Part shown: in pieces, positions 4,379 to 64,000 of the stretch
Position numbering within the stretch: position 1 is the stretch's first letter
How the letters are laid out: each line of letters begins with the position of its first letter
Assembly (NCBI RefSeq): GCF_037042905.1
Contig: NC_087245.1
Coordinates: 4,466,001-4,530,000 of the forward strand
Reading direction: 5' to 3'
DNA length: 64,000 nucleotides
Source of the DNA: Lytechinus pictus
Taxonomy: Eukaryota
The notes under the pieces: model-generated
Told to the model about the DNA's origin: nothing
Database searches by the model: none
What the model saw: only the letters and a program-made list of their open reading frames with translations
Program-made: the position numbers and the translations under genes

Positions 4379-4413
<35 letters not shown>

Positions 4414-4553
4414 TTACTTATACTACTACTACTATTATTATTACTTATACTACTACTACTACTTCTACTACTACTACTTCTACTACTACTATTACGAATT
4501 CTACTACTACTATTACTACTATAGTACTAGTAGTAGTTCTACTACTGTTACTT

Positions 4554-4586
<33 letters not shown>

Positions 4587-4587
4587 T

Positions 4588-4640
<53 letters not shown>

Positions 4641-4671
4641 TTACTACTACTACTACTACTACTAGTACTTA

Positions 4672-4716
<45 letters not shown>

Positions 4717-7186
4717 TACTACTTCTACTACTACTACTACTACTACTACTACTATCATGCCACTCTACTCTTAGTTTTACTTCTATTCCCGCTACTACTA
4801 AGTAAAATGTATTTCAGAGATCAAAGTAAGAGTAACATACCCTCTGTGATAGGAGTAAGATTGAAATCGTAAAAATATTAAACTAAATAATTACTGAAAA
4901 GGAAGGTGCCATAAACCACAGAATAAAGTAAAGGCACTAATATGTGATAAAGCATCATTAATATATTGTGTTTATAAAATTTCCTTTCTCTTGAAAGGAA
5001 TATAACCTTATACCCCTTTCACTCCTTTCACGTTTTTATATTTCTGTTTTAGGTCCATATAGTCGTCAATGTTCTCTCTGTTGAACGTGTATGGGACACA
5101 CTCACATTGAAACATAGCCCACTTGCTCTCCCACATGATGGTATTGAATTTCTATTGGTCAGTGCCAATGTGACGTCATTGATTTTACCTTCTGGATCGG
5201 TAGTGATCGAATTCTGTAGCGATGACCGTGTGGAAGATGATGGCTTTGCGTTCGATTTCCGACTTATGCCAATACGCGGTAAGTATAATGCATGAATCAT
5301 ACCAAAAGGAACTACCCGGGGAAGGGGTTCAGGATTGTTTAATGACTACTGTTTAAACGTTTAATTGTCCACCCCAGAAAAACGTTACTTTGAAAAAAAA
5401 GAGAAAAATCAAACTAGCATAACACTGAAAAGTTGATCAAAATCGGATGTAAAAAAGGAAAGTTATGACATTTTAAAGTTTAAAGTTTTTATTTTTCACA
5501 ATACAGTGATATACACAACTCAGTGGCATGCAAATGAGACAGACGATGATGACCATCACTCACTATTTCTTTTGTTTTTTATTGTTTGAGTTATACAATA
5601 TTTTATTTTTTTCTAAACAAATTTGACAATAAGGACCAACTTTACTGAACCATATAGTATTAAACAATACTAATTCCACATTTTCAGGGAGGAATTAATC
5701 GTTGTTTCACTTGACAATGAGGAGAAAATCATAATATTTCATGTTTTATATAATAAAATACAAAATGAAAAGTGAGTGGATGGCGTCATCAGTCTCCTCA
5801 TTTGCATACAGACCAGTATGTGCATAATAACTGTTTGTGAAATTAGGCGAAACTTTAATTAAAATGTCATAACTTTCTTGTCTTGCATCCGATTTTGATG
5901 AAATGTTCAGTGGTATGCCTGTTGGATTTTTCCCTTTTTATTGAAATCAACTTTTTCTCGGCGTGGACTTGGCCTTTAAAATAATGTTAACTACGTCATG
6001 GCTCCTGCATTCAGTTATTTCAGTTTACTGAGATATAATATAATTTGAAATAGTTTCATATTCATGTAAGAAGGCATTTATTTTGATAGTCTTTCGATCT
6101 AAAATGTTAGGATGATGACTTTTGCATAACGTGTGCAAACATAATGTAAATTTCTTAATTTTCTTTGAAACCTCAATGTCTTGCCCTTTTCAGCAATATA
6201 TTTGAAGGTGGGATAGTTATGATTTAAACAGAGGTCGATATCACTGCTTAGACGCGTGCTTTTCAAAATTAAATTTGTAATTTTATAAATCATATTTTTG
6301 TAGATGGCAATAACATGTCATGTGAAAAGATAGCTGAGGACACGGAATTCGCTTGCTCATCTGGAATGCAATTCGTCGACATCATCGCAAGGTGTGATTG
6401 GAAAGTTGACTGTCATGATGTTTCAGACGAAGTCGGCTGTGGGAGTGAGTATAAGTTAATAGAAATGAAGCAAACGTCTGATATATCGATGCAATTTTTC
6501 ATTTGTTTGTATTTCCTGTTTTCATTATGTATGTCTATCCGCACTTTCACACGAAAAAAAAATCGTAATTTGAAAGATGATTCCAGTGAAAAATAAGATT
6601 AATGACGAATATTTAGCACGTGTGAAACCAAACTAGAACATGATTAGAATCACGAACGCTAATCACAGTCACCACAGTCACGATTACAATAGCAATCATC
6701 ATTACAATGATGATTTAAGATTCACGTGTGAAAAGGCCCTATATCATTCTAAGAAGTCAAAATTCATTTCATCTAGTATAAGTGTATTATGGCGCAGACG
6801 TCCAGACGCTTCCTTCCAGTAATATACATACATTTTTAAACTCCAAGGGTAGCAAACAATATCTATTAGAACAATGCTAAAAGTAAGGAAGATTATTGGG
6901 GGATGTGAAAATAGTCAGGGGCGGTGTTCGACCCTTTCGAACGTGGGCGGCAAATCCATCGAAAATTTCAAAGTCTGCATGTAATTTTTGTTTTAATGAT
7001 AAAAAATATATGCTGTCATTGCATCTCGTTCATTATTTAGGAATTCGATTGCATGTTTGTTACATCAGTAATTAATCCGTTTCTATTACAATATCAGATG
7101 AAGATATTTATATATTATATAGATGGTGATCATGGTAATTGCGGTGATGGTGCAGATGTATATTTTAATGTAGTTGGTGGTGGTGG

Positions 7187-7228
<42 letters not shown>

Positions 7229-10200
7229 CGATTGTGATGATGATAATGGTAATGGTGGGATAGTGGTGTTTGTGATGGTGTTGGTGGTGGTGATGACGAT
7301 AGTGGTGATGATGATAATGGTAATGGTGGGATAGTGGTGTCTGTGATGGTGTTGGTGGTGGTGATGACGATGGTGGTGATGATGATAATGGTAATGGTGG
7401 GATAGTGGTGTCTGTGATGGTGTTGGTGGTGGTGATGACGATGGTGGTGGGGATGTCGTTGGTGCTGATGGTGGTGATGGTGATAATGATGAATATGATG
7501 ATCAAGTCACATATATTTTTATTCATTTTACTGGGGTGTATCTGTCGGAAAGAACTATTTACATAGAGACATCATCATCTGACGTCACTATCTAAAATAT
7601 ATAACTCACACCAATATAACTGTATATAAACCCGCTGTCATCTTGATTACAGGTTAATGTCATAATGCCCTAGCCTTATTTGGTCACATGATCTGCGCTT
7701 TAATAAGTCAGTGTAATGATGGTACATTATTGTACACTGTTAGGAAATTTCTACTTATAAATTAAAAAATTCCTGCAGCAGAGTCTCGAGAGCACCTGTA
7801 ATCTTACTGCACTGTGTAATCTTACATGCATTTGTGTGAAATTACAGAAAATTTGTATTCGGTGTATGTAACCTTACAAATTTATTGTAATAAAACTGTT
7901 TCACCCTTTTCTAAAATAGACCTGTTCTGTAAAATTGTAGAATATCATTCCTGTTATAACAATTTACAGAATGATTTGGTAATTTCTCAAGTTCTGTAAA
8001 ATCTGTTTTTATATATATATTTTTTGTCTTCTGTAAAATCTTTTGTTTTTTCTCGCAGTGTAGATAGCTTTCGCTTCTGATAGAGTATAGTGATACGCGC
8101 TATACAGTGCGTATCCAAAAAAAAGTTTACACTTTGAAAAAGCCCTTGGAATTAAAAAGATATACAACATGTGGGTAATTTTTCACATATAATCTTGGGT
8201 TTGGGTCTCATGTATCCAATGAAAGTAAAAGTTTTGATAGAATGTTACACTTGAGTGAGTACTGTCCATTTTGTAAAGCTCGCAGAAATCTGTTTGCGCA
8301 GAAATGCTCGTTTTCACGCCTGTGTCAAGGGGAAAGGGCGTAATCAAACTTACCCTGCGAAACATTTCTCATATATTTCTCTTGCACTTTTAGTCATTTG
8401 AAATAAAAACGGATACATTCAAGCATTTTGTAACAATTTTGCCACCCAAATTTCAATTTCAACACTTAATAAGCACAGCCTTTACCCTTTTTGTGCCAGC
8501 TGGATCTGATGACATAAATGAATCTGAACAAAAGTTTATATCAGACATCTCCGCATTTTTTCACTAAGTTCTTATCATTTAAAATGGGTTTACATTTCAT
8601 TTTTCATTTAATACTTGCTTCTCTACACTTTTTCCAAGCTGGAAAATGATTAACAAAATGAAAATAAAGTCTAAGCCATTTCATGTAAATCACAGCTCAA
8701 TGTAAAGCAAATATCGTCACGATGGCCTCGGTGTGTCGGGGAGTGGGTTGGGGCGCAATGCACTCTTCGAAGTGTTTTGGGCAAGGAAACAAGTTAAAAA
8801 AATGTAAAAGATATCTTCAAATCAATTTTACTAGCTAAATTCCACGTGTTCTTCATGATTAAAGTCTACTTTTATTCGCATAACTATTTCAAAGTTCTGT
8901 GCAAATAATTTTTCACTAACTTTTCAAAAGTAAGTGGTGCTCACTCAAGCGGAAATATTTTTCGACAGTTATATCGTCATTTGCTTAAATGGATCTGTAC
9001 CAATATTAAAATGTGGAAAAATCTTCAGGATATTACTAATGTTTAATTTTACAGGATTTTTTTCTAAGTGTAAACTTTTTTTTTGATACGCACTGTATAA
9101 GAAAATATTATTATTATCGTATAATATATTGACGTTTTGCTATGACTACTCTATGCAGGTTGTCCATCGAATGTCTACCAGTGTAAAGGGAGTAATATTT
9201 GTCTCCTGATGGAGTTCCTGTGTGATGGTTGGTCCGATTGTCCTCTAGGAGAGGATGAACAAAATTGTAAGGAAATATGAGACTTCATTTCTTTTCTTCA
9301 GTTCCCAAAAGTGGTGATACCTAATGTCATTAATCAATTTATGTTAAGTTGCGATGTTCCACAGGTTATATGTATAATATCATGCGAAATATACTCCCGA
9401 CTTGTGTATGGGTGGGTGTGTGTGTGTGTGGGAGAGAGTGTGCGTGTGTGGGTGAGAGAGAGAGTGTGTGTGTGTTTTAAATAGAGAGTTTGTGTGTGAG
9501 CGGCGTGCGCACTACAGAGTTTTAGGGAGAGAGAGGAGAGGTGCGCTGTGTGTGAGGGTGTGTCTGTGTGTTATAGAGGGTGGGTGTGTGCGTGTGTGTT
9601 TCCGTTGGTCTATCTCTACCTCTCAAATTTTAGGTTAATTTTTTAGGGATAGGTACTTGATTTATATGAGGTTGTGCGTAGGTACATGCGCAGGTGTGTG
9701 AGGTGTCGGTAAGCAAATTTGTGTGTGTTAATGTGCGAAAAAATAGTAATTGTAATAGTTGCCAAACATTGCTGTTTGAAAACTAAAATCATTCATATTT
9801 TCATGATACGAGGTTCCCTTCAATGTCCCACCGGATACACGTGTGGCCACTTACCATATAATATCAAGTATGAACCAAGACACGACTGTGGGCCATCAGA
9901 CTGGTTACCTTTCTGGGTTAATGCTTCAAGTGCCTGGAGAACAGACTATGGTAACATCACCGCTAAACTTGCAACTATTCTGTGAGTATTTTGTGGGCTA
10001 CAATTCTCAACCTGCTCATTTTGACTTTATCCAGCTTGTACATTTCTTTCTTCTCAGTTACTGATTGTTTACTATATATCCACCATCTATGTGAAGATGT
10101 AATTGGTTTTAGAAGATAATTGAGTTATTATTTTGTTTGTTTCAATTGTAGCAACCTTCGGGAAATTTATCATAAAACGTTGGAAGTTGGAACATTTGTC

Positions 10201-13200
10201 GGTCTTCCCAATCTTAGCTTGCTGTAAGTTACCTGTTCTTATCTTAATTTATCACCATACTATATCTTGGCACAGACTCTCAGCAGGCAGCAGTGTATTC
10301 TTGAATATTTACAAAACTCAAGGTTTCGTGATTCGGTTTGTCCAACTACGTCCATGTAAGACCCACAGTCTTGTCCCTATGCCAGTTTATTCTAAATTAG
10401 AACCAGGAATGGAATTTTATTACAATCACTGCAATAAGTGTAGATAAAATGCCTACATCACATTGCCCTTCGTATCATACATTTCCAATAGAATTATTCA
10501 GATTTCGATTCATTAATGATTATTTTTTTTAATTTCAAATGATATTAATTAACGTAAATGTCAATGATGCATCATGATAAACATGCAATCAATTACTAAT
10601 ATCTATGAGTCATAAGTCATAATTATGTAAGAATAAAATGATATTCTGCACAATAATTTAAGCCTGATGGAAGGGAAAATTGAATACATAATAATGTATT
10701 TCTTCTATTATCAATTTAATGTTTCATTCCTATCAGTGATATGTCACATTGTGGATTAACACATCTAACCCCTGGAGTTTTCGATGGCTTAGTCAGACTC
10801 AAGAAACTGTGAGTGCTTCATCCTCATCCTTCATCACGCACGATTCTGTTTCTAGCTATACACCTTATTGGCGCCTCCTTCCTCTTAATCATACTCATGT
10901 GATTAATTTCATTAATTAATTAACAAATCTTACTCCTGTTGCACTCTCTTTTCCTCTCCCCTCCCTCTCCCACCCTCCTCCCCCTGGGAATTATTATCAT
11001 ATTTTTTTTTAAATAAAAAAAAAATCGCTAGAAAAAGATGGTAATATTGTTCCAGGAAAACTTTGACAAGAAAAAAAAGGGCTTATGAAGGTTACTTGGT
11101 TTCATTTCTTGGTTTCATAACTTGTATACTTTTTGCATTTTTTTTTATTGAACCGAAATATCACTATATTCTAAATTATGTCAAAGTCATTACATTTGAA
11201 ATTATGTCCTTTAATTACTCATACGACAAATGTTGGTGATCATAATGTATGAAATTAATTGTTTAGTTCTATCTTTACAGAATCCTGGCGCACAACAAAA
11301 TAACTTTCCTTGAGGCCTGGACATTTAAAGGTCTTTCTTATTTAAATTATTTGTAAGTACATTTTCCCTTCTCAAACATTTCCAAAAGCAGAAAAATGAA
11401 AGAGTCGAAGTTCAAGAGGCATAACCGTATTATGAGTATAGCCATAGTATATAGTATAGTTAAGTGTCAGTATAGTGGCAGTAGTAGCTGTGGTATAGTA
11501 AAAACAGTCTTTACTTTCATTATTTTGCCCATATTCGCCTCACGTTTTAAAAATGTACTCGCTCCATTAACATGATTAAGTGTGATTAAGAGTGAATGTA
11601 CATGAGCTCGTACAGCAATCGTCCTTCTGTCTGTTGAATTAAGTTTCTTATTTCTATTCTAAACTCTTCTTTCGTTCAAAGGTACTTGGAATTAAACGCG
11701 ATTCATGAATTCAGTGAGGATGGTTTCAAAGGCCTCGCCCGTATAAGATCTATGTAAGTAACGATACCTTAACCTGTTGATTGTAATACTTTAATTTCCA
11801 GCGTTTTTTTTTTTTTGCTAGATTTTACTCTGAATTAATTTGTGTTGCATGTAAGTTTGGCAAATCGGCTCTTGGAATACCAATAGATTTATAATTTTGG
11901 TGGAATAGACGTATGTCATTCGATTTAGAAATTGTTGAAATCAGTATCCAAAGAAGTCGTTGTCTGTTGTAGTGTATAATCAACTCCCATGCAGCCTTCG
12001 GATTTGGAATATGCGTATTAAAACGTATCTATGAGAAAGAATAGATTTACAAGACAATCAATTTTGCGAAAATTACCAAATTTATGAACGACTATCAAGT
12101 CCAAGGATTCAAATTGTTATGTTATAGTCTGATATTTGAATTAACATGCAACATTTATAGCCATAGCGATGTCAGATTTCTTTACGCAAAGAGATTGTCA
12201 TGCAGAGTATACATGGTATATAGCAAAATGAAAACATTATTAACTCGTTCACACATAATGTATTCGAAAATGAAAAATTTGTTTATAAACCCCCGAGACT
12301 TTCCCAGCAGCAGTAAATCCATGAAATTTTGACAGAAAGACATTGATTACACTGATAAACAGTTAATTCGGCCGGGAAATGCAATATATCAACTCTCTCT
12401 CATTAGATGGTTTACTGACTTTATAGACCTACAAAAAAAGGCTTGGACAAAGATATTTTCATTTGCGACTTTTTAAGGTTGTTCATAAAGTGTGGTATGT
12501 TAATTATAGATACTACAAAAACACACAAACATGACCTAATACGCACAGTCACATCCTGACCCTCATACACGCATAATATCTTACACACATATCATAAATA
12601 TACTAGTATTACTTACCTTTGTATTGCTGTGATTTAATGATGAAGGTTATTATTGATTGCTCGCAATACAAAGAAAAAATTCACTGAGAAAAAAGTATAT
12701 TCGAGAAAATTGTTTTCCTGATTTAAAAAAAATATATAATTATGATTACGTTTGATTATATATTTGATGGACATAAATTTAGGGATCCATAAAAGGCATC
12801 TATCAGAGAGCAAGGCTATTTCAAACTGTCTACAATGAAGTCTAAGAAAAAAACATTCCTTTTTTATGCAGAGACTTGGAAAACAATACAATAACTCATG
12901 TCAGGGCTGGTGCCTTCAAAGATGTTGGTCAAACACTCGAACGATTGTAAGTATTCATCGTCATCATCAGCAACTAAATTATCTTCTTATTTCTCAATAT
13001 ATTATAAGTCTTGTTATCAGTGTTATCCTCGTCCTTCCCATGTCATTAGTTTGTTATTTAATTCTTCGTCTTCTTGATCTTCTCTTCTCCTTCATCACCT
13101 TCTTTTTCTCCTTTCTTTCCCTCTCTTTTATCATCATCATCATCTTCATCTCCTCCTCCTTCTTCTTTCACTTCTTTACTTTTGTTCTTCTTATTTGTTT

Positions 13201-16200
13201 TCCAAAGGTATTTTTTTCTTCTTCTCCATATTCATAGTTTTTTCTTCCTTTTATTCCTTTCCTCTTCTTTGTCTTCTTCAAATGTTGTTTAGGTGAATTA
13301 TTTTTATTTGCCACAAACATTATTCGTTTGTTATTTCAATCATTTCATTTATTTCTTCTCTTACATTCCTTTTACGAGCAGATGGTTCACTTGAACTTGC
13401 ATCTATCCTAAAACTTCCTATAGCAATGTATAATAAGATGTGTTTTAAGATGAGATTATTTGTAAAAAAATTAAATTGCACTTTTGGACCCATATCACCC
13501 ACACGGGGTCCGACCACTTGACCGAAGGCCCGCGAGACCGATTTTTTCCCCTTCATCAGGTGCCGAGTGGTTTATATAAGGCGCCTCGTTGCAGCGGCGT
13601 ATGCCTGTTATCAGAGGGGGCAGAGCCAAATATTTCCCGGTACTCCGTCTAGAATTAGTGACATAGCTAGGATTTCAGTTTAGGGGTGGTAGTGAGCACG
13701 GGAAGCGCGCTTCCGGGGGGGGGGGGGTGCAGGGAGTGGGAGTGTCCCCCGCGAGAAGCGTGAAAGCTCCGACGTTCCTGTGAATCGTTCCTTGTCTGCT
13801 CCCGCTCATCTTAATACGTCCTCTGCCTGTTTTCGGGGGGGGGGGGGGGGAGGGTAGAGCAAAAATATTTCCCGGTAACTAAGTCCAGAAGGATTTCATT
13901 TTAGGGGGCTGTAGTGAGCACGCGAAGTGGCGAAACACCGTGCGCGCGAAAGGCGCTCCCTATAATGAAATTCAAGCAAAGCCACTGATTTTGGACTTAG
14001 TTACCGGAAATTTTTTTTGATCGCCCCCCCCCCCTGATAACAGGCAGAGGACGTATTAAGATGAGCGAGAGCAGATAAGGAACAACTCAAAGGAACGTCG
14101 GGCCTTCCGCGCTTCTCGCGGGGGGGGGGGGGTACACTCTCCTCCCTGCACCCCCCACCGGAACGCGCTTCCCGTGCTCACTACTGCCCCCTAAACTGAA
14201 ATCCTAGTTATGCCACTAATTCTAGATGGAATTACTGGGAAATATTTGGCTCTGCCCCCTCCCCCTATGATAAAAGGCACCTGTTACGCCGCTGCAACGA
14301 GGCGCCTTAAACCACTCGACCGCGGCACCCGATGATGGAGGGGGAAAATGTCGGTCTCGCGGGCCTTCGGTCTTGCGGGCTGTCACCTATCACACGCCCG
14401 GCCTTGGATAAAAGAAAAATTGATGCAATTTACTATCTTTTTGTGATTCTATAGGACATATTTTCCCCATTATCCTCAACTACTTCATAATCCAATTCTA
14501 TCATAAACCGCATTTTTCCCTATTAACCAGATTTCCGAATCAAATCCATTTGATTAATCGAATTAATTTTATTAATCTGATTATCATGTAGCTATACCAT
14601 CCTGATAAATCGATTTCACTCTCCTAAGACGTGGTGTATCTTTAAAAGAAAATCACCCCATAGTTTATCCCTTATGTTATTATGACTATGAGTCTACCAT
14701 ACTGAAGAAAGGAGTATCGCGGATCAATAATTGATTAAAGATCTAAAATTTGTTTTGAAATATATATCTTAGATTTCGTATGTGCTGCAAGGACAAATGA
14801 CAAATCAAAATAACAAAATTTCCCTTCCAAATACGTGCTGAAATAAAAATATTTAATATATATATCATTTAATTCCCTCGTATTTATGTATAAATTTTAT
14901 GCTACAATTTTTGTCCAAAACTCTACAATACACTCTCATTATACTCGTCAAAGCAATCAACTTCATCTACCCTTTGCTCGATCAACTATATCTTTAAATT
15001 CCTTTAAAACTTGTTTTCCTAAGTTATGGAATAACCTCCCCTCTGATATAAAATCCAGTTCAACTCTTTCTAGGTTCAAGAGACTTATTAGAAAATTATT
15101 AACCTGTGTTTAAAAAAACCTTCAGTCAATTATTTGTTTTTATCTCATTGAAAGTCCCCCTCCCGGCTGTTGCATCGGTGTACTTAGTGTAATTATCATT
15201 ATTTATTGTATATTTTCAGTGTACATTTAAACTCGATGGCCCCTTTTTATAAGCTCTGCTTTCTCCGGGGTTACCAAACCATCATTCTATTGTTATATTT
15301 GTATGTATTTATTTGATTGTTTGTACCTGATGATGGTTGAATAAATAAATTGAATTGAAATATTTCAATATTCATTATTTTGTTGATCAAAATGTCTCAT
15401 TTCTTCATTGAGATGTGTACTCGATTTGTCACGCGAGCTTTGAAGTTGTAGGTTGAAGAGTATAATAGGGTGAATCTGACGATTATTTTTCCACCCACCA
15501 CACCAATATAATTCTTTTTTGGGATGAAATAAATGCCACACGGGATTTACACTAATACAAAAATGTTTAAAATTTCTTTGAACGTTGTCTTTTAAATAAA
15601 GTTTTCAATAGAATTGATAAAATTTTGTTTTTAGTTGACAAGCAATATCAGATAGGTCTTTGATCGAAAAAGACGGTATTGTTCACACTATTAAATTTGG
15701 AAAGTTAAATTGATTTTTGAAATTGAAATTAAAAATTATTTTATTCAGACAGGTATAAAATTAACATTCTCTGGGGGAAAGATAATAAATAAATAATAAT
15801 AATAAATGACTATGATGGTGATGAAATATTAAAAAAAAATTATGTATTGAGTAAGAAAATTGAAGTGACTTATTTCATGGTATATTACTTATTCTCCTTG
15901 TTTAATGCGACCCTCTCCGCCCCCCCCTCTGTCTTTCGCTCTCTCTCTTTCCTAAACCCCGTCTTTGTTGTTCATGTTGTTGTTGTTGTTCTTCCCCTAA
16001 ATTTAATTAAGCCATTATTTGGGGGGGGGGGAGGCAAGCACTTAAACTTAATTTATATTTTTTTCACAGCTGTAATCTTGTCGTTTGTTGTTGTTGTTTA
16101 TTTAGGCTTTAAAGCGCATACCATTCAAATAAGAAGATGTATCCCAATCTCTAATATCTATTTAAGTTTCTCTCCCAGAAATGATTTCTTTACAAATTTC

Positions 16201-19200
16201 CTCTTCTGCTCCTCTCGTTTATGTATATTGTCTGCTTAACAATCTTATTCTTTTTATGTTTAAATTTGTCTCCATGATTCGTAATCCATGACGTCATCAC
16301 GGTAACACTAAAGCCTACTGCATGGAAACCTAATGACTTCAGTTAATGCTTCAATGTTTACTGGCTTACGAAACCTACAGAGGATGTAAGTAACATTACA
16401 ACAAACTTTAAATAATAACAGACATAAAACATAATACATACAAAAACGTAAGATGAATGAAAAAAAAAATAGTTCTTCGGATATTCAAAAATTTCGTCAG
16501 ATATAATGAGAATTATATACATGTATATAAAATCGTTTCAATTACAAGTTTTAACATGATGATATGTAGTTGAGGGAAATTTATCAGATCATTTGCTATT
16601 TTGCGCGAGTATTGTTAAAAAAATTATACTTATAATTATTGCGCGAAATGACTTGATATAAATGTCTTCGAATAAATAGCCTAAAATATTTGTTTACATA
16701 GATTACAATGAATAATAATTTCATTCTTTTTTTTTTGTCTCGCATGCATAGCAGAGCGAGACTATAGGCGCCGCTTTTCCGGCGGCGGCGGCGGCGGCGG
16801 CGTCAACATCAAATCTTAACCTAAGGTTAAGTTTTTGAAATGACATCATAACTTAGAAAGTATATGGACCTAGTTCATGAAACTTGGACATAAGGTTAAT
16901 CAAGTATTACTAAACATCCTGCCTGAGTTTCAGGTCACATGACCAAGGTCAAAGGTCATTTAGGGTCAATGAACTTAGACCATGTTGGGAGAATTTTTTT
17001 CAAAATCTTAACCGAAGGTTAAGTTTTTGAAATGACATCATAACTTAGAAAGTATATGGACCTAATCGCTAGAGGGTATTCATTTGTCTCGCAATCTACT
17101 ATGGTCAACAAGGAAATTCGTGATCACTCTCGCAAAAAGTGTTCACTGGCTTTCTAGGAAATTCGTGATCACTCTCGCAAAAAAGTGTTCACTAGCTTAC
17201 AAGTTCACGAGCTTTCGAGTGCCGCTGCAACTCTTTATCAAGTGACGAAAATTAGGTTGGTTGGTTGGTGTTGGAGTTAAGTTGGCGCTCTTCAATCTGG
17301 TAGATTATCTGCGCTAGGTCGTTTCCGAGTTAGTTGCTTAATTCCCGCATCAATGTCCTCGGCGTTAGACTAGTCTGACCTGTCATATAGCGAGGTGCAA
17401 TATAATTATGATTAGTTACCACCATCATTAATTCAGGATGACTTTATAATCTGCATTTCTTCCCAATAATGTTGCTAGATCTGATATTGGCTTGTTTAAT
17501 TATGCAAAGAAGCCTAAAATTAAACAAGCCAATATCAGATCTAGCAACATTATTGGGAAGAAATGCAGATTATAAAGTCATCCTGAATTAATGATGGTGG
17601 TAACTAATCATAATTATATTGCACCTCGCTACATGACAGGTCAGACTAGTCTAACGCCGAGGACATTGATGCGGGAATTAAGCAACTAACTCGGAAACGA
17701 CCTGGCGCAGATAAGTATACCAGATTGAAGAGCGCCAACTTAACTCCAACACCAACCAACCAACCTAATTTTCGTCACTTGATAAAGAGTTGCAGCGGCA
17801 CTCGAAAGCTCGTGAACTTGTAAGCTAGTGAACACTTTTTGCGAGAGTGATCACGAATTTCCTAGAAAGCCAGTGAACACTTTTTGCGAGAGTGATCACG
17901 AATTTCCTTGTTGACCATAGTAGATTGCGAGACAAATGAATACCCTCTAGCGATTATTTCAATCCGCAATAATGAACCTATTTAGTATATAGACCTAGTT
18001 CATGAAACCTAAGTATGAGCTTAATCAAGTATTAGTGAACATCCTGCTCGAGTTTAGGGTCAATGAACTTTGGTCAAGTTGGGGGTATTTGTTGAATTAC
18101 TATCATAACTTTGAAAATTTTTGGATCTAGTTCATGAAACTTGGACATAAGTATTAGTGAACATCCTGCTCGAGTTTCAGGTCACATGACCAAGGTCAAA
18201 GGTCATTTAGGGTCAATGAACTTTGGCCAAGTTGGGGGTATTTGTTGAATTACCATAATAACTTTGAAAATTTATGGATCTAGTTCATGAAACTTGGACA
18301 TTAGGTTAATCAAGTACCACTGAATATCCTGTGCGAGTTTCAGGTCACATGACCATGGTCAATGGTCATTTAAGGTCAATAAACTTTGGCCATGTTGGGG
18401 GTATTTGTTGAATTACCATCCTAACTATGAAAGTTTATGGATCTAGTTCATAAAACTTGGGATACAAGAGTAATCAAGTATCACTGAACATCCCCTGTGA
18501 GTTTCAGGTCACAAAATTAAGGTCAAAGGTCAGTTAAGGTCAATAAACTTAGGCCATGTTGGGGTAATTGTTGAATTGCCATCAAAGTTTATGGATAGAG
18601 TGAATGAAATGTGGACATGGGTGTAGTTGACAAGTCTTAAGTCACCGTTCAAATGTCATTTATGGTCAATGAATGTGGTATTATGTCATTATATGAATGG
18701 TGTTTTTGTGAATGATTATTTTATAGTAGTTTTCAAAGTTAGTACTGCTGCTATATTAAATCGCGTAATGCAGGCGAGACTGCCAGAGGCGTTCCACTTG
18801 TTCTTGATTATAATTTCTAATGTCACTTCATTTAATATATGATTTTTTCCCCACCCCCCTTCTGTCTTCCCCCTCTTTTGTCTTAAGTTATACCCGTGTT
18901 TGTTTGGTTTTACATACTTACGTAGTCTCTATGTGATTATTAATTGTGTAAAGTTATGTTTAATATATAAGTATTAATGATCACAGCAAAAATGATTTCT
19001 ATACTGAATCACAATTGAGGTAGGCATAAAACCTAGAAGGCTCAGTCCTGGTTTTAATCTTGCCCACCTTTTTTTCATTTTTTATGCTGTTTTATTTTTA
19101 AATAATTTTCTTTCTTCTCGTGCTCTAGATGTATTTTGATGTTCATGTTCTATATTCATGCTACTGTTATTGTTTTTATATGTAATTTTTAATGTAAATG

Positions 19201-21881
19201 ATTTGGAATTAAAGATTGAAATTGAAATAAAAACCAATTCCTTTCCATCTCTCACCCCTCTCCAGATACAAATATTTCCTCTTTACTGTGTTTTCTCTTT
19301 AGAAAAAAAAGAAAGAAAATGTTTCACTCTGAATAATTAAATCGTCAAATTTCATTGTAAGCTTACTCCCTCTCTCATATGGCATTTTATTGTTTTAAAC
19401 AGAAATTTTAACAACAATCATTTAAGGTACATTGAACCGGGAGCCTTCCACAATCTATCTACTGTGACTGATTTGTGAGTTTTTACCGATTTATTCAGTC
19501 TGTGTGATTTATTTGCATTTTTTTTTAACACATGTGATCATCAAGATGTTATTGTTATTAATCTTTGTAAACAACAAACGACGATTCTTGATAAAGGGGG
19601 CTAATTTACATAGTTGCATCTAAAAAACTTCTAACAATTTAGTTTTTGAGAGATAACGCAATTACATGCATTTGCTATTAAGTGTATCCTCCATTTCCAT
19701 AGATATTGATAATGTTTGAAAAAAAAAATGCTCTGAAATTTTGTTTTCTTTACTGATGAACTAATATGTAGATTATATACAAAGTATCTCAATTTATAAT
19801 TTTCTTTTATGATACACATTGTCATTGTATCTCTTCATATTTTTTCTGGTGGAAATGGAATAAACATGAATCTGAAATGAATTTTAATCGCGGTGGTACT
19901 ATCCTCAATCACCAGTAACAATAAAGATCACGCGTATACGGTTGGATTGTCCTTCTCTCTAAACGTTTTCTTCTGTTTTTGCCCTTGTTCTTCCTCTATT
20001 ATTTTAGAGTAATTTCATCGCTAAGTTCGGAACCATACCTTCTTTATCCCGGTATATTTGATGGACTGGATTCCTTGACGGCTTTGTAAGTACCTTTCAA
20101 ATATATTTTTTATATTCATGATTACATCAGTGGTTGAGTCGAAGCAATATTGTATTGACCAGGGGCCGCGGAAGCGGGGGGGGGGTGCTGGGGGCTTCAG
20201 CCCCCACTTTTTTTTCCAAAACCGTGTACAAAAACGTAAAAATTACCATATGATTGTGATTTTTTGCAGGATCAGCCCCCCCCCCATTTTAAAAACCGTT
20301 CCGCGGCCCCTGTTGACTTATGCCTGCATGACTGTCCATCTTATTCACATGTATTTAAAGGTGACAATTTTATCAATATAGGGTACATGGAACTTTCATA
20401 TTCGACACTCTCTCTGAATTCTTCAGGCAAAAAGATGCAGCTGTTAAAAACAAAATACTCGTCGGTTCAGTATAAATGTAGAACAACTTGCTTGTCTAGT
20501 GCAGTTGACTCTTGTCACGATTTCACGTGCAGCCTCTAAGAAGTGGTTTCAATATACCAATCATTATCTGATTACTAGTACAATCCGGTTAATGGACTTG
20601 AGAATTTAATGGGCATGATGGGCAAAATATACAAACAGAAGCATATTATGCTCAGATTTCCTACACGAAGTCACTGATGAATAAAGAACTGTCAGTTCGA
20701 TAACTTTTGCTGTTTAATTAAAAAAAGTTTTGAAAGTAATGTATGAATTTTCTTTATCCTTGCTTTATAGATATGTGTATGATCAGCGTTTATGCTGCCT
20801 GTTACCGACTAGCGTTGTTTGCGTTGTCCAAAAGCCTGCTCACCCTCTCTTCACCTGCCGTAGAACCTTTCTTCAGAACACAGCCATCAAGGTTTTCATA
20901 TGGATCCTTGGTTTGAGCGCCCTCTTCGGTAACATCTTTGTCATCACAATGAGAATCAGAAGCCGTTCAGTGACAACGGTTGGTAAGATACAGTCCATGT
21001 TCATCACTAACCTAGCTGTGTCTGACTTCTTTATGGGAATCTACATGGTACTCATAGCAGTCATGGATATCTACATTGGGGAATCCTATTTCTGGGAAGG
21101 TCGTGCTGATGAATGGCGCACCAGTGTAACTTGCCAGATTGCAGGATTCCTATCTGTCCTTAGCAGCGAAGCATCGGTCTTTCTCCTGACCTTGATAACA
21201 GCTGATCGTTTCATTTCCATAGTATTTCCCTTCAGCCACCACCGCCTTAGTACCACATCTGCCCGTGTTGCTCTTATTGTCATCTGGATAGTCGCAATTT
21301 CTCTCAGTCTTATCGGTGTCCTGCTGAACAATGTTATACCCGAAGCATATGGTCTCAGTGATGTCTGCGTTGGTCTCCCATTCATCAGGAAATCAACGGA
21401 CATCTCTACTGTGATTGACCAACGTTCATCTGCCCAGTACAACACTGTGATCTACAATATTGCATCAGGATCCACAGTCTCGACATGGCAGTTCTCAATT
21501 TTCCTGTTCCTTGGAGTAAACCTCTTAAGCTTCATCACTATCCTCTTCTCTTATATCATTATTTTCATCAAGATTCGTCTGGATCAGGCCGAAGTCGGTC
21601 GCAGGGCAGAAGCTTCTAACGAAATCAAGATGGCCTTTAAGATGTTCTTGATCGTTGGCACCGACTTTTGCTGTTGGATGCCCATTATCATTCTTGGTAT
21701 CCTCGTCCAGACGGTCGGGGTCGATGTTACACCAGATATCTACGCCTGGTTGGTGGTGTTTGTTTTACCAATCAATTCATCACTCAATCCCTATCTATAC
21801 ACCATAATTCACATGTCATCGAAGAGATCTGCAAATGAGAAGAGCAAGCAGACGGTTATTAGCATGGTTACCCGTGACTAG
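3157..21881 (+). CDS. GRL101/relaxin-receptor-like LRR-containing GPCR (CUB + 2 LDLa + LRRs + 7TM); 5' exon(s) uncertain
   Basis: Phase-consistent exons: 3157(or 3151)-3272 and 5053-5278 (CUB: IVSPGFPDHYP...EWTV...FCSDDRVEDDGF); 6304-6444 and 9159-9266 (LDLa: CDWKVDCHDVSDEVGC; CDGWSDCPLGEDEQNC); 9813-9981 (Cys-rich LRR N-cap); seven phase-2 LRR exons of 72-78 bp (10737-10808, 11281-11352, 11682-11753, 12872-12946, 16314-16385, 19403-19474, 20008-20085); terminal exon 20771-21881 with hinge DQRLCC and 7TM motifs NLAVSD, DRF, TDFCCWMP, LPINSSLNPYLY. About 795 codons in total. Confidence 0.92.
3741..4800. repeat. (TAC)n microsatellite, ~1 kb
   Basis: Direct reading. Confidence 0.98.
5357..5975. 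mobile_element. Kolobok-like MITE, diverged copy
   Basis: Colinear with 50597-51187; ends gtggacttggcct|ttaa. Confidence 0.75.
7175..7502. repeat. (GAT/GGT)n low-complexity tract with a 71-bp unit x3
   Basis: gataatggtaatggtgggatagtggtg recurs at 7242, 7313 and 7384. Confidence 0.9.
7735..8060. mobile_element. Possible CACTA/EnSpm-like MITE
   Basis: ta|cactg ... cagtg|ta termini, with repeated ctgtaaaat/ttacag motifs. Confidence 0.45.
8105..9095. mobile_element. Tc1/mariner-like MITE (~990 bp)
   Basis: TA|cagtgcgtatc..aaagtttacactt ... aagtgtaaacttt..gatacgcactg|TA. Confidence 0.85.
9403..9600. repeat. (GT)n/(GA)n compound microsatellite
   Basis: Direct reading. Confidence 0.9.
13472..14432. 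mobile_element. GC-rich foldback (long inverted repeat) element
   Basis: ~430-bp imperfect inverted arms (~13520-13910 vs ~13960-14372) with poly-G/poly-C tracts; outer taaattgca/tgcaattta. Confidence 0.75.
14860..15360 (+). mobile_element. 3' end of a CR1/L2-group LINE (ORF2 C-terminus + 3' UTR)
   Basis: HSHYTRQSNQLHLP...SF..CFPKLWNNLPSDIKSSSTLSRFKRLIRK is typical of L2/CR1-group ORF2 ends; tail aataaataaattgaattgaa. Confidence 0.8.
17205..17245 (-). ncRNA. Mirror copy of the minimal hammerhead ribozyme
   Basis: Reverse complement of 17775-17815, located in the left arm of the palindrome. Confidence 0.65.
17775..17815 (+). ncRNA. Minimal type-I hammerhead ribozyme (U3-A8 variant)
   Basis: TCAC (stem I) - TTGATAA (core) - A - GAGTtGC agcg GCACTC (stem II) - GAAA - GCT (palindromic AGCT helix III) - C (cleavage site) - GTGA (stem I'). 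Confidence 0.65.
20160..20312. mobile_element. Small MITE
   Basis: TIR caggggccgcggaa/ttccgcggcccctg, flanked by a ttgac repeat. Confidence 0.7.
20771..21881 (+). CDS. Terminal hinge + 7TM exon of the LRR-GPCR
   Basis: Lies within ORF 20730-21881. Acceptor tttatag ends at 20770. Seven hydrophobic segments with rhodopsin-class/LGR motifs; TAG at 21879-21881. Confidence 0.95.
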
Positions 21882-24047
21882 GATTTAACACAATGGCACT
21901 AAGAGGTACAGATAATTAGGAAAGGGCGCCTGTGGTCCATGGAATCCCCCCCCCAAAAAAAACAGAAAGAAAAAGAAAGAATTTTATGAATAAAATTTAA
22001 AAACAAGAGAAAATGGAAAGAAAGGAAAGGTAAAAGGGTGAATTTTCTGAATATCATGTCAAAATTTATTACGAAATAAGGCTGGGGGTGGGGGGGGGGG
22101 TCAGTATACGCCAATGCTCAGTGAATTCGTTCCGATATAACAAATACTAACTGTGTTGCCTCATTATTATTATCGGTGAATATTCAACGTGTTCTTGTAT
22201 CTATGGAAAAGGAAAAAAATATTTCATTCTTATTGATAGCTTGATTGATTTTATATCGTATAGATATCCAATTGTATAGACCATATTAGGCTTAAAATGT
22301 CGTATATGTCAATATTGTTTATGAAATTTCTTACATTATTTTCTGACTTTTCAGTTCAAGCGTTTTTCTCATGTATCAAAATGAACAGTTAAATAATTCA
22401 ATATAAAACATAACAAAAAGTTGTTCATGAAATATTGGAGTAAATTGGTTATTAATCTTAGATACATAGACGAAACCGATAGCTTGATTACACATCGTTA
22501 TATATAAGAATTGTAAGAGCAATTACATTCGTTTATTTAGTTATTTCCTCTTTAAGGATATTCATAGCGTAAAATGATTAAGAATATTCCAGAATGTCTC
22601 AGTTAAGCTTGTTAGGCATGCTATTTAATAGGCTGAGTAATCTTTGTTATTTCTGGAATGTAGACAATAAGGCCTGCCTGCAGTGAAAAGAACAATAGGA
22701 TTAGCTATGTTGTTTGTTGTTAATGTTGTTAATTTCACTGAGGTCATTCAAGAATTTCTAAAATTAGACTGCTCTAGAAATTGGCAGAATGTTCTTTTTG
22801 TAGACAATACTAGAAGCTTCCAGAATAGTGAATAATTTGTATATAAGCTGGCAGCTTCTTCAAGGACATCATCATATCAGATCAGAACTCAGAGTTTCAC
22901 TCCAGACTTTATGTCAGAGCACAGTTTACATGGTTTATTTCGAACTGGAATACAACATTTATCTTCTGTGGAATTATTTGCACGCCATCAATGAACTGTT
23001 TGCAGATACTTTGAGAGAGGAATTCTCAGTTCTCATCAAGATCATCAAGCTGTTTTAATGAACGCTTTTCAACCCATGGATTGCTGAAATTGATTGTTAA
23101 TCATCATCAACATTGTCTTCACAGACATTGCAACTCGTTACAGTGACTTTTGTTATTCATCGTGCTTCAACATCAATTTCATCATCGCCATCATTGTGAA
23201 CTTTAATTAAAGGAATCTTCGCCAACTGACTTGGATTTTCATTTGGATTTATATCATAACCTTGGATTGCACATCTAACTCTTCAAGATATGTAAGACCA
23301 TTGTTTATTTTTGTTTTGTTGAATGATCTATTTCCTGTAATAAAAGAAAAGGAAATCAAATTTAAAACTAAATTTTCATTGTTATTTGTTGCAGTATCGT
23401 AACAACATAATGTAGAAAACATTAGAAATGACACACTAAAAAAGAAGCAGAGCTTGTAGAAAATTTAGTGCATCTGAGATTCAATACCATTTCTAAGTCA
23501 TATAGTCAAAATAAGAATTGTATATACTGTATATAAAATTGTTGACCATTATACATTGCCTTGGAGAAAAAAATCAATTTAAAAACAGAGGGCTTTGAAA
23601 ATAAATAATGTTTTTAAAAAAGACGAGAAAGGAAGCAAGCAAGAAAGTAAAGATTAACAAAAGATGGAATGTATATAATCATATGTGAAGAGAAGGATAG
23701 CTCCACGTGTCAAACATTCATTTTTGAAGATTGAATAGCAGTTGTATATTTAAAAAAAGTATTGGATGTACTATTGTAGAATTAATCGTATTAAACGTTT
23801 TTTTTTTAAGGGAACGATCCTTGGAATCAATTTAACAGATTGGTGAATTTAATTCCAGTGTGGTAGGTCCATGGTTCCCATAAATACTACTGTTTTTTTA
23901 ACTTTTGGGGCAAGGGATGTCCGCAAGAGCGTAGAATGAAATTGATCAAATTGCCTAGCGGGATATGAATGTATTTCATGATCTTGTGGAAAAAAAGGCA
24001 TAGATTTTTGTCAGCGGAAACATGAAAATTCCTAAATGCCAGTTATA

Positions 24048-25032
24048 CAATGCGTATCAAAAAAAGTTTACACTTATTAGAAAAAATCCTGTAAAATTAT
24101 ACATTTGTAATATCCTGAACATATTTTCACATTTTAACATTAGTCCAGGTCCATTTAAGCAAATGACGATTTAACTGTCAAAAAATATTTCCACTTGAGT
24201 GAACACCACTTACTTTTGAAAAGTTAGTGAAAAATGATTTGCGCAGAACTTTGAAATAGTTATGCGTATAAAAGTAAACCTTAATCATGAAGAACACGTT
24301 GAATTTAGTTAGTAAAATTGATTTGAAGATATCTTTTACCTTTTTTAACTTGTTTCCTTGCCCGAAACACTTTGGTGAGTGCATTGCGCCCCACCCCACT
24401 CCCCCACACACCGAGGCCATCGTGACGATATTTTCTTTTGTGAGTTGTGATTTACATGAAATGGCTTAGGCTCGACTTTCATTTTGTTAATCATTGTCAA
24501 GCTTGGTAAAAGTGTGGAAAACCAAATATTAATAAAAAATGAAATGTAGACCTACTTTAAATGTTAAAATCTTAGTGAAAAAATGCTGAGATGTCTGATA
24601 TAAACTTTTGTTCAGATTCAGTTATGTCCTCAGATACAGCTGGCACAAAAAGGGTAAAGGTTGTGCTCACTAAGTGTTAAAATTTCAATATGGGTGGCAA
24701 AAAGGTTACAAAATGCTTGAATGTATCCGTTTTATTTCAACTGACCAAAAGTGCAAGGGAAATGTATGGGAAATGTTTCGCAGGGTAAGTTTGATTTCGC
24801 CCTTTCCCCTTGACACAGCGTAAAAACGAGCATTTCTGCGCAAACAGATTTCTGCAAGCTTTGCAAAAATGGACAGTGCTCACTCAAGTGTAACATTCTG
24901 TCAAAACTTTTACTTTCATTGGATAGATGATACCCAAACCCAAGATTATATGTGAAAAAATTTCCCACATGTTGTATATTTTTTTATTCCCAGGGCTTTT
25001 TCAAAGTGTAAACTTTTTTTTGATACGCACTG
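24048..25032. mobile_element. Tc1/mariner-like MITE, second copy in opposite orientation
   Basis: Same TIRs and TA TSD; internal sequence is the reverse complement of 8105-9095. Confidence 0.85.
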
Positions 25033-25314
25033 TAGATATCTTTTATCTTTAATATTTCATTGTAGAAAATAAAGTGTCGGTATGAGAACAAAAATGAACA
25101 TTATGTATAATATATTATGAGGATTCGTTTTTTGTAAAAGAAGCGTTCTATTCCTTTTTGAGGTCATTATGAAAGTTAAAATCCCTGAAGGTTTTCATAG
25201 TCTTATAAACCTTTACCACGGAATACTAGCTAGTGTACATTTTTATTTTTATTTGCCAACCGTTTCAAAAGTGACATGGTTTTTATGACGTACGATATTT
25301 TATACATTTATCTA

Positions 25315-27448: not shown

Positions 27449-30400
27449 ATGGCTCCTGCGACGGGCACATCTACATCGGGCGCCAATCCCAGTGCAGCCC
27501 CAAACCCTGGCGGCTACTCGGTCATGCTGTCAGAGGAAGATTATCATAACACACAAAGCATGGAGATGACAAAATTTGTGAGAGAACATTTCAAGACACC
27601 GAAAGGTAGCATTTTAAAATATGAGTGAAAATGTTAAATCTGATGAAAGGAAATAATCACTGTCAGTCTCCCCTCCCTCCCCCCTCTCTCTCTTTCTCTT
27701 GATCATTGCTATCATTGTCAGTAATATCATTATTAATATTATTATTACTATTATTATCATTATTATTGTTATTATTGGTAGTATTATTATCATTATAAAA
27801 CCTTTTCTCCAGATAGTCTTGCCTGAATGGCAAATCGAGACTAATGCCGCTTTTCCAACGGCGGCGTCGTCAACTTTGAAATCATAACCTAAGATTAAGT
27901 TTTTGAAATGTCATTACTATGGACCTAGTTCATATTACTGAGCATCCTGTCTGAGTTTCTGGTCACAAGACTAAGGTCAAAGGTCATTTAGGATAATCGA
28001 ACTTCGATTATGTTGGGGGAGTCAAAATGAAATCTTAACCAATGTTAAGTTTTTAGAAATGTTATAAGTTTGAAAGTATATGGATCTATAATAAACTTGG
28101 ACGTAATAGTAATCAAGTATCAGTGAACATTCTGCGTGAGTTTCAGGTCACATGACTAAGGTCGAAGGTCATTTAATGTCAATGAACTTTGGCCAAGCTG
28201 GGGTTATTTGCTGAATTACCGTCATAACTGAAAGTTTATGGATCTAGTTCATGAAATGTGGACATAAGGGTACAGTATCACTGATCGTTTTGCACAAGTC
28301 TTGGTTCTCACGATCAAGGTCGAATGTCATTTAGGTTCAATGAGCTTAGTATTTTATTTTATACAAATGGTATCTTTTGTGAATAACTATTCTATAGATG
28401 ATGTGGAAGAGGTTCATCGTGGTGAAGGGTTGAGTAGAAGAAATAACCAGTTGTCTCGCGATGTAGCAAACTATTCTATAGTCGTTTTCAAAGTCAGCAC
28501 TGCTGCTATATTGAATCGCGTAATTGAGGCGAAATACCAAACGCTCCACGTGTAAAATTACTTTTTATTGATATTCTTTTCGTTATCATTAACTTGATAT
28601 TAATATTATTATCATAATCTTTACCTACCGTCATCATTATTTTCATCATCCAAACTAATATTATCCTCGTTACCGTCATTATTGATTTAGTTGTTGTTAT
28701 AACCATTCCTATCTAGCACCCCCTTACAAGTTAGAGAAGCTTCTCATCCGTACAAGTCTTACGAGAGTGAACGAAAGAGATCCGATGCTATGGCAGAAGC
28801 ATTGCAAGAGACGTCAAGATCAGCTGAACAGAGGATTCTTTACTCCAAATCATAAAGCTTACCATTCTATAGGGGACATACAGTTAAACAGTCAAAGACT
28901 TATACTTAATTCTATGGCAGACTATCTACCTAAAAAGGTAAATAACATTATTCGATAGAAGTCAATGAAACAAAAAAACTTACGACATAAAAATGTATAG
29001 GGAGGTGTTTTATTATAGGGAATGGAATTGCCAATATTCCATCTAACATTGATTTTAAAAATAATTTCCATGCTGAAAATACCATTATAATTTAATAATA
29101 AGGAATTTAGTTGAATTTCATTACATCAATCAAAATTCAATGTAATCACGTATCCGCTTGCTCGATTTCATTTCAAACATATCACAGATTGCTCATAAAA
29201 TAAGCAGATGTTTAGTTTAAAAGTATGCCGTATTAAAATGTCAAAACTGTACTTCGATTGAAAACAATTATGGAAGTCATGGTCTAGTGATTCTGATTCT
29301 TGCATTTCAATCAGAGGGTCGTGGGTTCGAATCCTACTTCATGTGTTAATGAGGTAAATGAGTACCCACAAGGATTTATTCCTTGTTGTCCTCTTATAAT
29401 GTTTTAGTGCCTTACCATAACTATAATGGCGGCTCAGCTATATAGCCGGGGTAATACACAATGACTGCGCTATAAATGGACCTGTTATTAATCTTTAACC
29501 TTATCGATTCTCATATTTTTTTACCCCTATTTAAATCACTTTTTTCTAACCCCATCTCTCCTCTCCCGCTTTCTGTCTCTCTCTCTCACTCTCTCTCTCG
29601 TGACATGACATTTGCTCCTGCGACAATTACTCCGGGCTTAATTTCGTCTATAAGATGTAGGGTTATGTTAGGGTTGCAATATGGTTTCATGTTAGGTTTG
29701 GGGTTCGGCTAAGGGTAGGGTAAAGTCAGCGGCGTAACAGGGGTCGGTGGCCAGGGGGGGCAAGAGCCAAAAATTTCCCGGTCATATCATGGAACAGGCA
29801 ATGGTGTCATAAGGCAAAAATTTTGAGGGGGCGATATGGCGTATCGGGCAAATATATAATATATATAAGCGAGCGAGCGAAGTGAGCGAGCAAATTTTTT
29901 TGACATTTTTATTGCAAAAATCCAATTTTGTGATAGATTTTGACATAATGTGTTAAAAAGATGATATCATATTTCACCCTCCTCTCTTTCCTTTTTTCTC
30001 TCTTTTTTTGTACGCCACGGTGAACAGGATTTTTGTTATGATTGTGAGCATCATGGCGAAGCTCTATATGCTTGAGGGGGCCGAGTATGGCGCTTCTGGC
30101 AATAAGTAGCTTAATAAAGGTCCCGAGCGAGCGAAGCGAGCGAGATAAAAACAACACATTTTCATGAGAATCTAACATGAAGATAGATTTTAACGTGATA
30201 TTCAAAAAAATATAATACACTTTCCTTTCTTTCCTCTTTTTTTTTGTTTGGTTGTAGAACTTTTGGGGGCCATGGTCCAACTCATCCATATAACAGTGCT
30301 TTATGGGTGGGGTCCAGGGCAGAGCCCCGGAACTTCTTGATATCAAAGCCATTTTAAACCTTACAGATGGCCACTTATTTTAATCAAATTGCGTGTATAT

Positions 30401-61827: not shown

Positions 61828-62205
61828 CTGTGTGAATGCAGATTAAAAAGAACACACATTAATATAGGCATTTGGAAGGGAGTGTTCATACATGCAGTCT
61901 TAAGTGTCTGGACACTGGACAAAATACTTTCATAAAGATAGAGAAAGTGAGAGGTAGAAAGAGAAAGTACCTTTTAGAAACATATTTCAAAGGGGGAAAG
62001 TAGTTAGAGAATTTTACTCTTGATGGACAATCACAGGAGAGAATTATATATGCAGGTGAATATTAAAGCAAACATATAATCTAACTGATATTTAACAAGT
62101 TCAAAACAATACTTTGTGGCAGGATTAGATTATCATTCAAAGAGGTATCACACTGAGTGGTGAACAAAGCAATAACATTGGGTTTTGGTAGCTTGGTTAT
62201 AATTA

Positions 62206-63155: not shown

Positions 63156-64000
63156 TAATGGAGAAGAAAAAGAGAATACAAACAGAATAAAGAAGCTTAG
63201 AAAAGGATCTAGGATCAACAAAAATACAAAGAATAGACACTGATAAGAAAAAGTAATTACATTTTAAACTTGTTTCTTCTTCTTCGTATCACAGATTTAC
63301 AAGACAATCTACCAAAATACCATCCATGGCTGAAACTTTGCACATTATTATAAAGCTTTTACATGTATTAGATATTATGATCCCATGGTAACATGTGATA
63401 ACTACATTATTTTGCATGACAACAAGGCACTCATCTCATCCTAGATAGATCTGTCTCTTGGTATTATTACCTCCAGGCATGTATCATAATTGGGGCACAG
63501 TACAGTATTTACAACTGATTATTACATGTATCAAGGAAAGGTAAGTGATAAAATCTCAATCAGTTTGCTAAGCCTGTCTGTGATAAAACTATGATTGAAA
63601 ATATTCAGATATTAATTTTTTTATGTGAGAACTTACTTATAGCACAAGCAATTAAACCACAAAAGGAAGGTAAAGTTTTCTTGAAACGGTGATGACTCCT
63701 CTTTTCCTATCAAGGGACACGTACCCACAAAAGTACTTTGAAACCACTGCACTCTCACACCCAGTCACCCATGAATTTGTCAAAGACTGTTTACAAATTC
63801 CAGGCCGAGTATGAGGTTGGATACCTTGAAATATGTTCTGTTCAATAATATGTTATGTTCTATTCATTTTATAGAATACCGAAGCGATGACATCAGTTGC
63901 CATGGTGTCATGGCGGCCTGGTTCTAAACAAATGAACCCGCCGAATGAAAGCGTGTTTCTCATAGAAGAAAATGGCTGCTATCAGAATTTGATCGCTTGC

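Follow-up and report, generated by a model that had tools for sequence, protein, structure and literature searches.

The window, by which we mean the whole 64-kb stretch of DNA analysed here, carries on its forward strand a predicted receptor gene, in which Pfam places LDLa at about 6.3 kb and a frame with 7tm_1 at 20718-21878 and a pattern scan predicts LRR exons of 72 or 75 nt at 10152, 10737, 11281, 12872 and 19403. We take this LDLa-LRR-7TM receptor gene to be GRL101-like. Between the last two of these exons lies a near-perfect palindrome, which is probably intronic in the receptor gene as modelled and which has interrupted a host repeat, itself described below. The features on which the argument depends are as follows, with + and - for the forward and reverse strands.

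6273-21881, +: predicted multi-exon LDLa-LRR-7TM GPCR gene (Pfam, LRR pattern scan)
12872-12946 and 19403-19474, +: predicted flanking LRR exons (splice-motif and LRR pattern scan)
16737-18802, +: host repeat interrupted by the insertion, about 2 kb, of HINE/non-autonomous Helentron-like layout
17051-17064, +: left copy of the TSD; its last 2 nt (TA, 17063-17064) are common to the left arm
17063-17428, -: left arm, Penelope-like element (PLE) end (pLTR) without tail (arm alignment; tail-less ends in contigs of run X4)
17205-17245, -: candidate minimal type I hammerhead, left, with U3 at 17241 and C17 at 17209
17429-17501, -: 73 nt of the LINE ORF2 fragment, inverted (tblastn of protein P0001, 23 of 23 residues identical)
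17502-17590, +: LINE ORF2 fragment, 89 nt (P0001 residues 204-232)
17502-17517, +: loop of 16 nt, with which the LINE fragment begins, on one side only
17591-17774, +: putative inner part of the right pLTR (depth far below that of the part from the hammerhead onward)
17775-17815, +: candidate minimal type I hammerhead, right, with a predicted cut after C17 at 17811
17820-17824, +: candidate 5' splice donor, 9 nt past the predicted cut
17822-17908, +: tandem duplication with a 45-bp unit (1.9 copies), its mirror image at 17111-17198
17955-17988, +: one-sided tail, 32-34 nt, placed by ends in other copies; ATG at 17972
17984-17997, +: right copy of the TSD; its first 4-5 nt are common to the tail

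Anatomy of the palindrome and of its site

The host repeat consists of a 5' inverted repeat, a GCG microsatellite, tandem units of 192/163 bp and a 3' sub-terminal match at 10 of 11 positions, the layout that PMC7492417, in the part that concerns us, gives for HINE elements. Three further copies of the host repeat are present in the window, at 27816-28553, 38589-39689 and 62197-63158, and no further copy of the palindrome arm is found elsewhere in the 64 kb. Other repeats are also present, namely a 102-bp tandem array at 57885-58880 (9.8 copies, 96% matches), two copies of about 1 kb at 8103-9100 and 24043-25034 that lie in opposite orientation and are 90.5% identical, and a MITE-like repeat of about 600 bp, matching in both orientations, at 5367-5979 and 50593-51191, and in part also at about 61185-61296.

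Aligned globally, 17063-17501 and the reverse-complemented 17518-17956 agree at 435 of 440 columns, the exceptions being three substitutions and two one-base indels (left/right positions 17179/-, 17303/17717, -/17715, 17315/17704 and 17387/17632). The near-perfect arms of about 440 bp and the 16-nt loop described by the first-pass annotation are thereby upheld, and so, in part, is its 14-bp TSD, which is a true duplication without being a perfect 14-mer: the two copies are identical at 13 of 14 positions. When the insert and one TSD copy are removed, the remaining model aligns without a gap at the site to two of the three host-repeat paralogues aligned (62150-63200, minus strand, and 38500-39730), the third (27780-28600) lacking the region, and it is from this gapless alignment that we conclude the duplication to be genuine. 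Its length is 7-14 nt, according to how the bases shared with the arm and the tail are counted, and the target is AT-rich. Private G>A changes are seen at 17516 in the loop and at 17991 in the right TSD copy. The 45-bp tandem duplication also occurs in other copies of the family, where it is spanned by record 13 of X4 and record 4 of X1.

Parts of the arm are contained in 20 public runs from nine studies under two organism labels, the best of which holds 56% of the arm words; four of these 20 runs were compared with 17502-18140, and the end and depth figures given below come from the matches listed. No read or contig among those listed spans the whole of the compared stretch and long palindromes are difficult to assemble, points which, with the 56% maximum, speak for an assembly or chimeric-read artefact. 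We consider this very improbable, as the mirror ends exactly at the element ends with host flanks outside, a TSD and a one-sided tail are present and, at four of the five arm differences, other copies agree with one of the arms (with the left at 17632, 17715 and 17717, with the right at 17704), which favours independent mutation and argues against an artefact. The palindrome is confirmed as real.

Penelope-like features of the arms

The hammerhead motif in each arm has a 4-bp helix I, a U3-A8 core in place of C3-G8, an unpaired base before G10.1, a bulged helix II closed by G-C and a palindromic AGCU helix III. A descriptor of this motif, composed after the motif had been seen, matches only the two arm sites in 64 kb; it matches none of 20,000 shuffled arms and gives no hit across 300 shuffles of the window. 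The minimal hammerheads of metazoan PLEs, as described in sections of Cervera and De la Pena 2014 (PMC4209133), lie in pLTRs and have the same U3-A8 core, by covariation, the same G10.1-C11.1, the same unpaired base after position 9, a 4-bp helix I and a palindromic helix III; opposite-strand pairs 100-700 bp apart are also reported there, and the palindrome likewise holds such a pair, its members separated by a few hundred bases. Unlike the dimers of that report, the two copies in the palindrome are on opposite strands, so that no dimer can be formed on one RNA. The assignment of the arm hammerheads to the PLE minimal type, as candidate ribozymes, is thus supported at the level of the motif. 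Thermodynamic folding did not set the region apart, since not all of the windows folded gave the hammerhead as the minimum-energy structure and the z-scores lay near 0, and a search of 16500-18700 against Rfam returned 29 matches, all below the gathering score and with no hammerhead family among them, these being mostly miRNA-precursor models, which fit any long hairpin. The donor-like site that follows the right hammerhead may open a 5'-UTR intron ahead of the ATG at 17972; a spliced joint from 17820 does not occur among the 15 rows listed (37 more).

The exact hammerhead pattern is found in no viral contig and no metagenome contig, and a relaxed pattern is found at no fewer than 118 metagenome loci. 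Both helix checks are passed by 40 of the 119 relaxed-pattern matches listed, and many of the others look like chance. Among 60 matches screened for reading frames, a GIY-YIG motif lies just upstream of the hammerhead in L032, L061 and L104, and frames with RT and YIGET lie downstream of it in L046, which is frameshifted and whose Pfam E values of 7e-4 and 8e-5 fall under the curated cut-offs; the Pfam RT/GIY-YIG matches in L046 and L061, and the GIY-YIG match in the protein P0033, are all just under these cut-offs. The largest relaxed-pattern family has an ATG-bearing tail in 14 of 38 matches, and L072 is itself an inverted pair, at 4400-4900, of which just one arm has the tail with its ATG. 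The unpaired centre of L072 resembles PLE endonuclease sequence rather than foreign DNA. Likeness between these loci and the window is limited to the hammerhead, where it amounts to some 82% across 41-49 nt, and they would accordingly support the PLE reading by type, as a different family. No RT/GIY-YIG frame is joined to the exact palindrome family among the viral and metagenome contigs searched. Comparison of 17591-17990 by blastx with 168 proteins from PLE searches gave nothing significant (best E 0.29), and a coding remnant in 17591-17774 is unsupported by protein comparison.

The ends of other copies locate the boundaries of the family. Loose ends of DNA contigs behind 17988, the commonest among those listed (577 more rows), were found in at least 10 contigs of X1 and at least 18 of X6, with a flank agreement of about 0.5, i.e. 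with varied flanks, and loose ends without the tail lie behind 17957 in at least three contigs of X4. The mixed flanks at both positions imply that the family has tail-less as well as tailed ends, and the varied flanks behind 17988 further imply that the right TSD copy begins with 4-5 nt that are also element sequence. The left-arm terminus coincides with the tail-less end of the family, and the tailed end lies 32-34 nt beyond it, overlapping the right TSD copy by 4-5 nt, so the first-pass description of an asymmetric tail of about 27 nt is right as to its one-sidedness and short as to its length. From its ATG the tail reads MNLFS(I), which provides 5-6 residues for comparison, and this ATG is probably the start of the PLE ORF; P0033, a protein of 834 aa with RT and GIY-YIG matches, begins MNLFS, and an MNLF start is found in three of the 168 proteins from the two PLE searches.

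Depth falls steeply along the arm towards its inner end. Summed contig depth in X1, where the values are sums and not copy numbers, is 607,468 at 17898-17919 and 210,801 in the tail, as against 2,548 at 17612-17633 and 522 at 17502-17523, that is to say about 240-fold lower at 17612-17633 than at 17898-17919; the profiles of X6 and X4 have the same shape, and over the public runs the range along the arm is about 600- to 1,200-fold. Such a gradient shows that the family is not a fixed palindrome. A jump of about 100-fold occurs at the hammerhead (17766-17790) in the DNA runs and of about 6-fold in RNA, for which either a very abundant non-autonomous element of about 215 nt beginning at the hammerhead, or many subfamilies having in common only the sequence from the hammerhead onward, may be responsible.

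Taken with the hammerheads, the ORF start in the tail, the two end positions, the loss of depth and the presence of GIY-YIG or RT beside related hammerheads, these data sustain the initial proposal that a young PLE insertion, inverted, tailed on one side and flanked by a TSD, is present. The published descriptions of EN+ PLE insertions (PMC8557442, in part) include an inverted 5'-truncated copy and a one-sided tail of 30-40 bp; both an inverted 5'-truncated copy beside a direct pLTR and an optional tail of this kind at one end are found here. Sections of PMC3846280 describe 8-10-bp TSDs and an optional 31-bp tail that contains ORF start codons. The palindrome resembles the Penelope/Poseidon, Neptune and Naiad insertions of these two papers in its head-to-head inverted pLTRs, its tail at one end, the ORF start in that end, the short TSD, the AT-rich target and the strong 5' truncation, and it differs from them, as there described, in having no PLE ORF body, in its near-equal arms and in the LINE sequence at its inner ends. 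PLEs of the Naiad/Chlamys type, with an N-terminal EN, are rejected as the source, as the relevant part of PMC8557442 gives them no canonical hammerhead and the palindrome has one; a non-LTR retrozyme is rejected also, since this would require head-to-tail tandem units with a type I hammerhead (10.64898/2026.07.22.740005, in part) and here there is an inverted pair with no tandem. Near-perfect inverted arms, the absence of coding capacity and a direct repeat at the ends are also what a DNA foldback or MITE-type element with long terminal inverted repeats would show, an explanation that we find scarcely credible given the asymmetric ends, with their one-sided tail, the depth variation along the arm, which contradicts any fixed unit, and the presence in the arm of a PLE hammerhead and ORF start.

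The LINE fragment at the inner ends

The PLE reading is incomplete by itself, in that the inner 73 and 89 nt of the arms are, from their sequence, of LINE origin. The open frame of 49 aa at 17442-17588 was used as the query in a search of 5.8 billion proteins, and of 17 candidates one matched, P0001, with an E value of 5e-7; over 17502-17588 the identity is 28 of 29 residues (97%). P0001 has an RNase H domain (Pfam) and a CCHC motif, and the fragment matches the C-terminal region that follows both. All 20 of its longer relatives have RNase H, most of them being APE-RT-RNase H proteins of about 1,240 aa, and they end at the same place as P0001; P0002, a relative at 51% identity, has APE, RT and RNase H together. 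The match to P0001, combined with the RNase H of its relatives, identifies 17502-17590 as a piece of a LINE ORF2. An alternative assignment of 17502-17591 to the C-terminal end of a PLE ORF was rejected, the synonymous bias being 5 of 7 (P = 0.08) and the protein search pointing to a LINE. The LINE may be of the I group (I/Nimb/Ingi).

Its clade was not fixed by comparison with the portions of PMC11203168 and PMC5718144 that bear on it. The palindrome shares this C-terminal ORF2 region with APE-RT-RNase H non-LTR retrotransposons and departs from them in retaining only 89 nt, broken within the frame and lacking a 3' UTR or tail; the LINE is not what made the insertion. The earlier statement that the insertion contains no ORF consequently holds for long ORFs and fails for the LINE ORF2 piece and for the ATG of the tail, although the palindrome copy, as it stands, encodes nothing.

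The boundary of the fragment is sharp and is the same in both arms. P0001 continues for nine residues past the match and the window changes sequence between 17590 and 17591, inside the frame; in the left arm the LINE/PLE junction is mirrored between 17428 and 17429, at the same cut point, and the loop is the difference between the 73 nt of LINE sequence on the left and the 89 nt on the right. In the public runs, five listed pieces over the LINE part cease to match at 17588-17590, three of the five continuing with 60-472 unlike letters, and five RNA reads that cover 17568-17589 end at 17590. None of the 24 pieces listed from the four runs (9,997 more) bridges the junction.

The arrangement has partial precedents. 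In Adineta vaga (PMC3846280, in part) the pLTRs have captured unrelated DNA in trans, including an NRPS gene and non-coding pieces between pLTRs and N-rich inserts, and a PLE, Pen2, has inserted within a non-LTR element; PMC6431247, in part, makes the same point on transduction. As in the Adineta vaga captures, foreign sequence here accompanies pLTRs inside a TSD, and unlike them the foreign piece is short, derives from a LINE ORF2 and is inverted and duplicated in both arms. No case in which each of two inverted pLTR arms carries a copy of one foreign piece was found in the literature searched, mainly the main texts of open-access papers. As a structure the palindrome is textbook PLE, its unusual part being the LINE sequence present in both arms.

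Origin and consequences of the insertion

The palindrome consists of two head-to-head, 5'-truncated pLTR ends, each of which runs inward into the same piece of LINE ORF2. We propose, with a probability of roughly 60%, that it arose recently from one non-autonomous insertion event, carried out in trans by an RT and GIY-YIG enzyme of the Penelope/Poseidon type from a read-through LINE-PLE RNA. The enzyme would nick both strands of an AT-rich site some 14 nt apart; one of the free ends would anneal to the last 4-5 nt of the tail and the other, over 2 nt, to the start site without a tail, and cDNA synthesis would then be primed from both. The template would be a read-through RNA from a source locus in which a PLE end of 398 nt lies in sense orientation inside a LINE ORF2, and both cDNAs would pass through the PLE into the LINE, stop 89 and 73 nt into it, perhaps close to the RNA's 5' end, and be joined. 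The Poseidon protein PAc of Anolis carolinensis cleaves and extends both strands of its target in vitro, and two internal RT start sites flank its tail (PMC11167929, in the sections relevant here); two such starts with extension from both strands would yield the layout of the palindrome. PAc has a hammerhead that overlaps the start of its ORF, and RT start sites some 110 nt inside that ORF, as distinct from the palindrome, whose ATG is 160 nt after the hammerhead and inside the tail. The origin of the inverted arms of PLEs is stated as open in parts of both PMC8557442 and PMC11167929.

That both arms cross the same foreign junction means either that the template was already chimeric or that a jump was followed by fold-back copying. 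In the latter case the RT would have jumped from a PLE RNA to a LINE RNA and copied 89 nt of it, the second arm being made by self-primed fold-back of the cDNA. This is the less likely course, though one that deserves serious attention: the LINE/PLE junction is bridged by no listed piece and the RNA reads end at it, the LINE piece is in the sense orientation, and palindromic junctions have led to the inference of self-priming and template jumps in part of PMC3846280. After a run of more than 400 nt, moreover, a mere 16 nt separates the ends of the two arms, an observation that fits a shared RNA end as well as a fold-back. On the other side, the stop of the left arm at the tail-less end is better accommodated by an independent RT start, of the sort given in the part of PMC11167929 cited above, than by a chance stop; the centre has no clear microhomology (at most 1 nt, as judged from protein only); and a single-copy source locus is easily missed among the rows listed. 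Since the left arm terminates at the second of the family's own ends, we prefer the read-through template, which is the likeliest and which we favour over a template jump with fold-back by about 2:1.

The five differences in 880 arm bases correspond to about 0.6% change per arm. Another history would be an older insertion with arms homogenised by conversion, or a larger structure (a full PLE or two neighbouring insertions) that later collapsed into the palindrome. In its favour, the loop and TSD hold two private changes in 44 nt against five in 880 arm nt (Poisson P = 0.026, post hoc), an excess that is a weak hint of arm homogenisation. We nonetheless hold such a history to be improbable, for record 10 of X4 matches 17502-17588 with one difference (that listed being 17516) and record 12 of X4 matches 17633-17714 with none, so that no shared private change is seen in the stretches compared, and collapse alone would not place LINE sequence in both arms.

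As an RNA the palindrome is predicted to fold with a minimum free energy of -831 kcal/mol, in perfect duplex stretches of 115, 123, 71 and 114 bp, and the hammerhead bases pair with the other arm with a probability of 0.9995 in the same folding analysis. For the long intronic dsRNA that had been anticipated, the hairpin is a prediction from folding and the intronic position one from predicted exons; ADAR or Dicer might act on it, and a DNA cruciform might form. Should the GPCR intron be transcribed, a duplex of about 440 bp should bury the sense hammerhead. A>G differences occur at 28 or more places in the RNA run, as compared with at least 5-6 in the three DNA contig runs, figures that include differences between individuals and an admixture of host-repeat reads, so that the excess in RNA is not assignable to this locus; other transitions among the matches listed (57 more rows) number 10-13 in the RNA run and 3-7 in the DNA contig runs. 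Mate orientations are about equal, from which it follows that strand information is absent.

The palindrome is probably a passenger, whether neutral or mildly deleterious. Its value lies in the LINE piece, a marker from which it can be seen that the copying of both arms crossed the same foreign junction. PLEs could, in this manner, move flanking DNA and convert it to a perfect hairpin inside an intron, and we infer that such an intronic hairpin might be a source of dsRNA against an unrelated LINE family. Were the template jump with fold-back to prove true, the locus would attest directly, at the level of the genome, to template switching across orders and to a second arm made by self-priming. 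The 3' part of the family, about 215 nt, is very abundant, and palindromes marked in this way could be counted genome-wide to weigh twin priming against fold-back.
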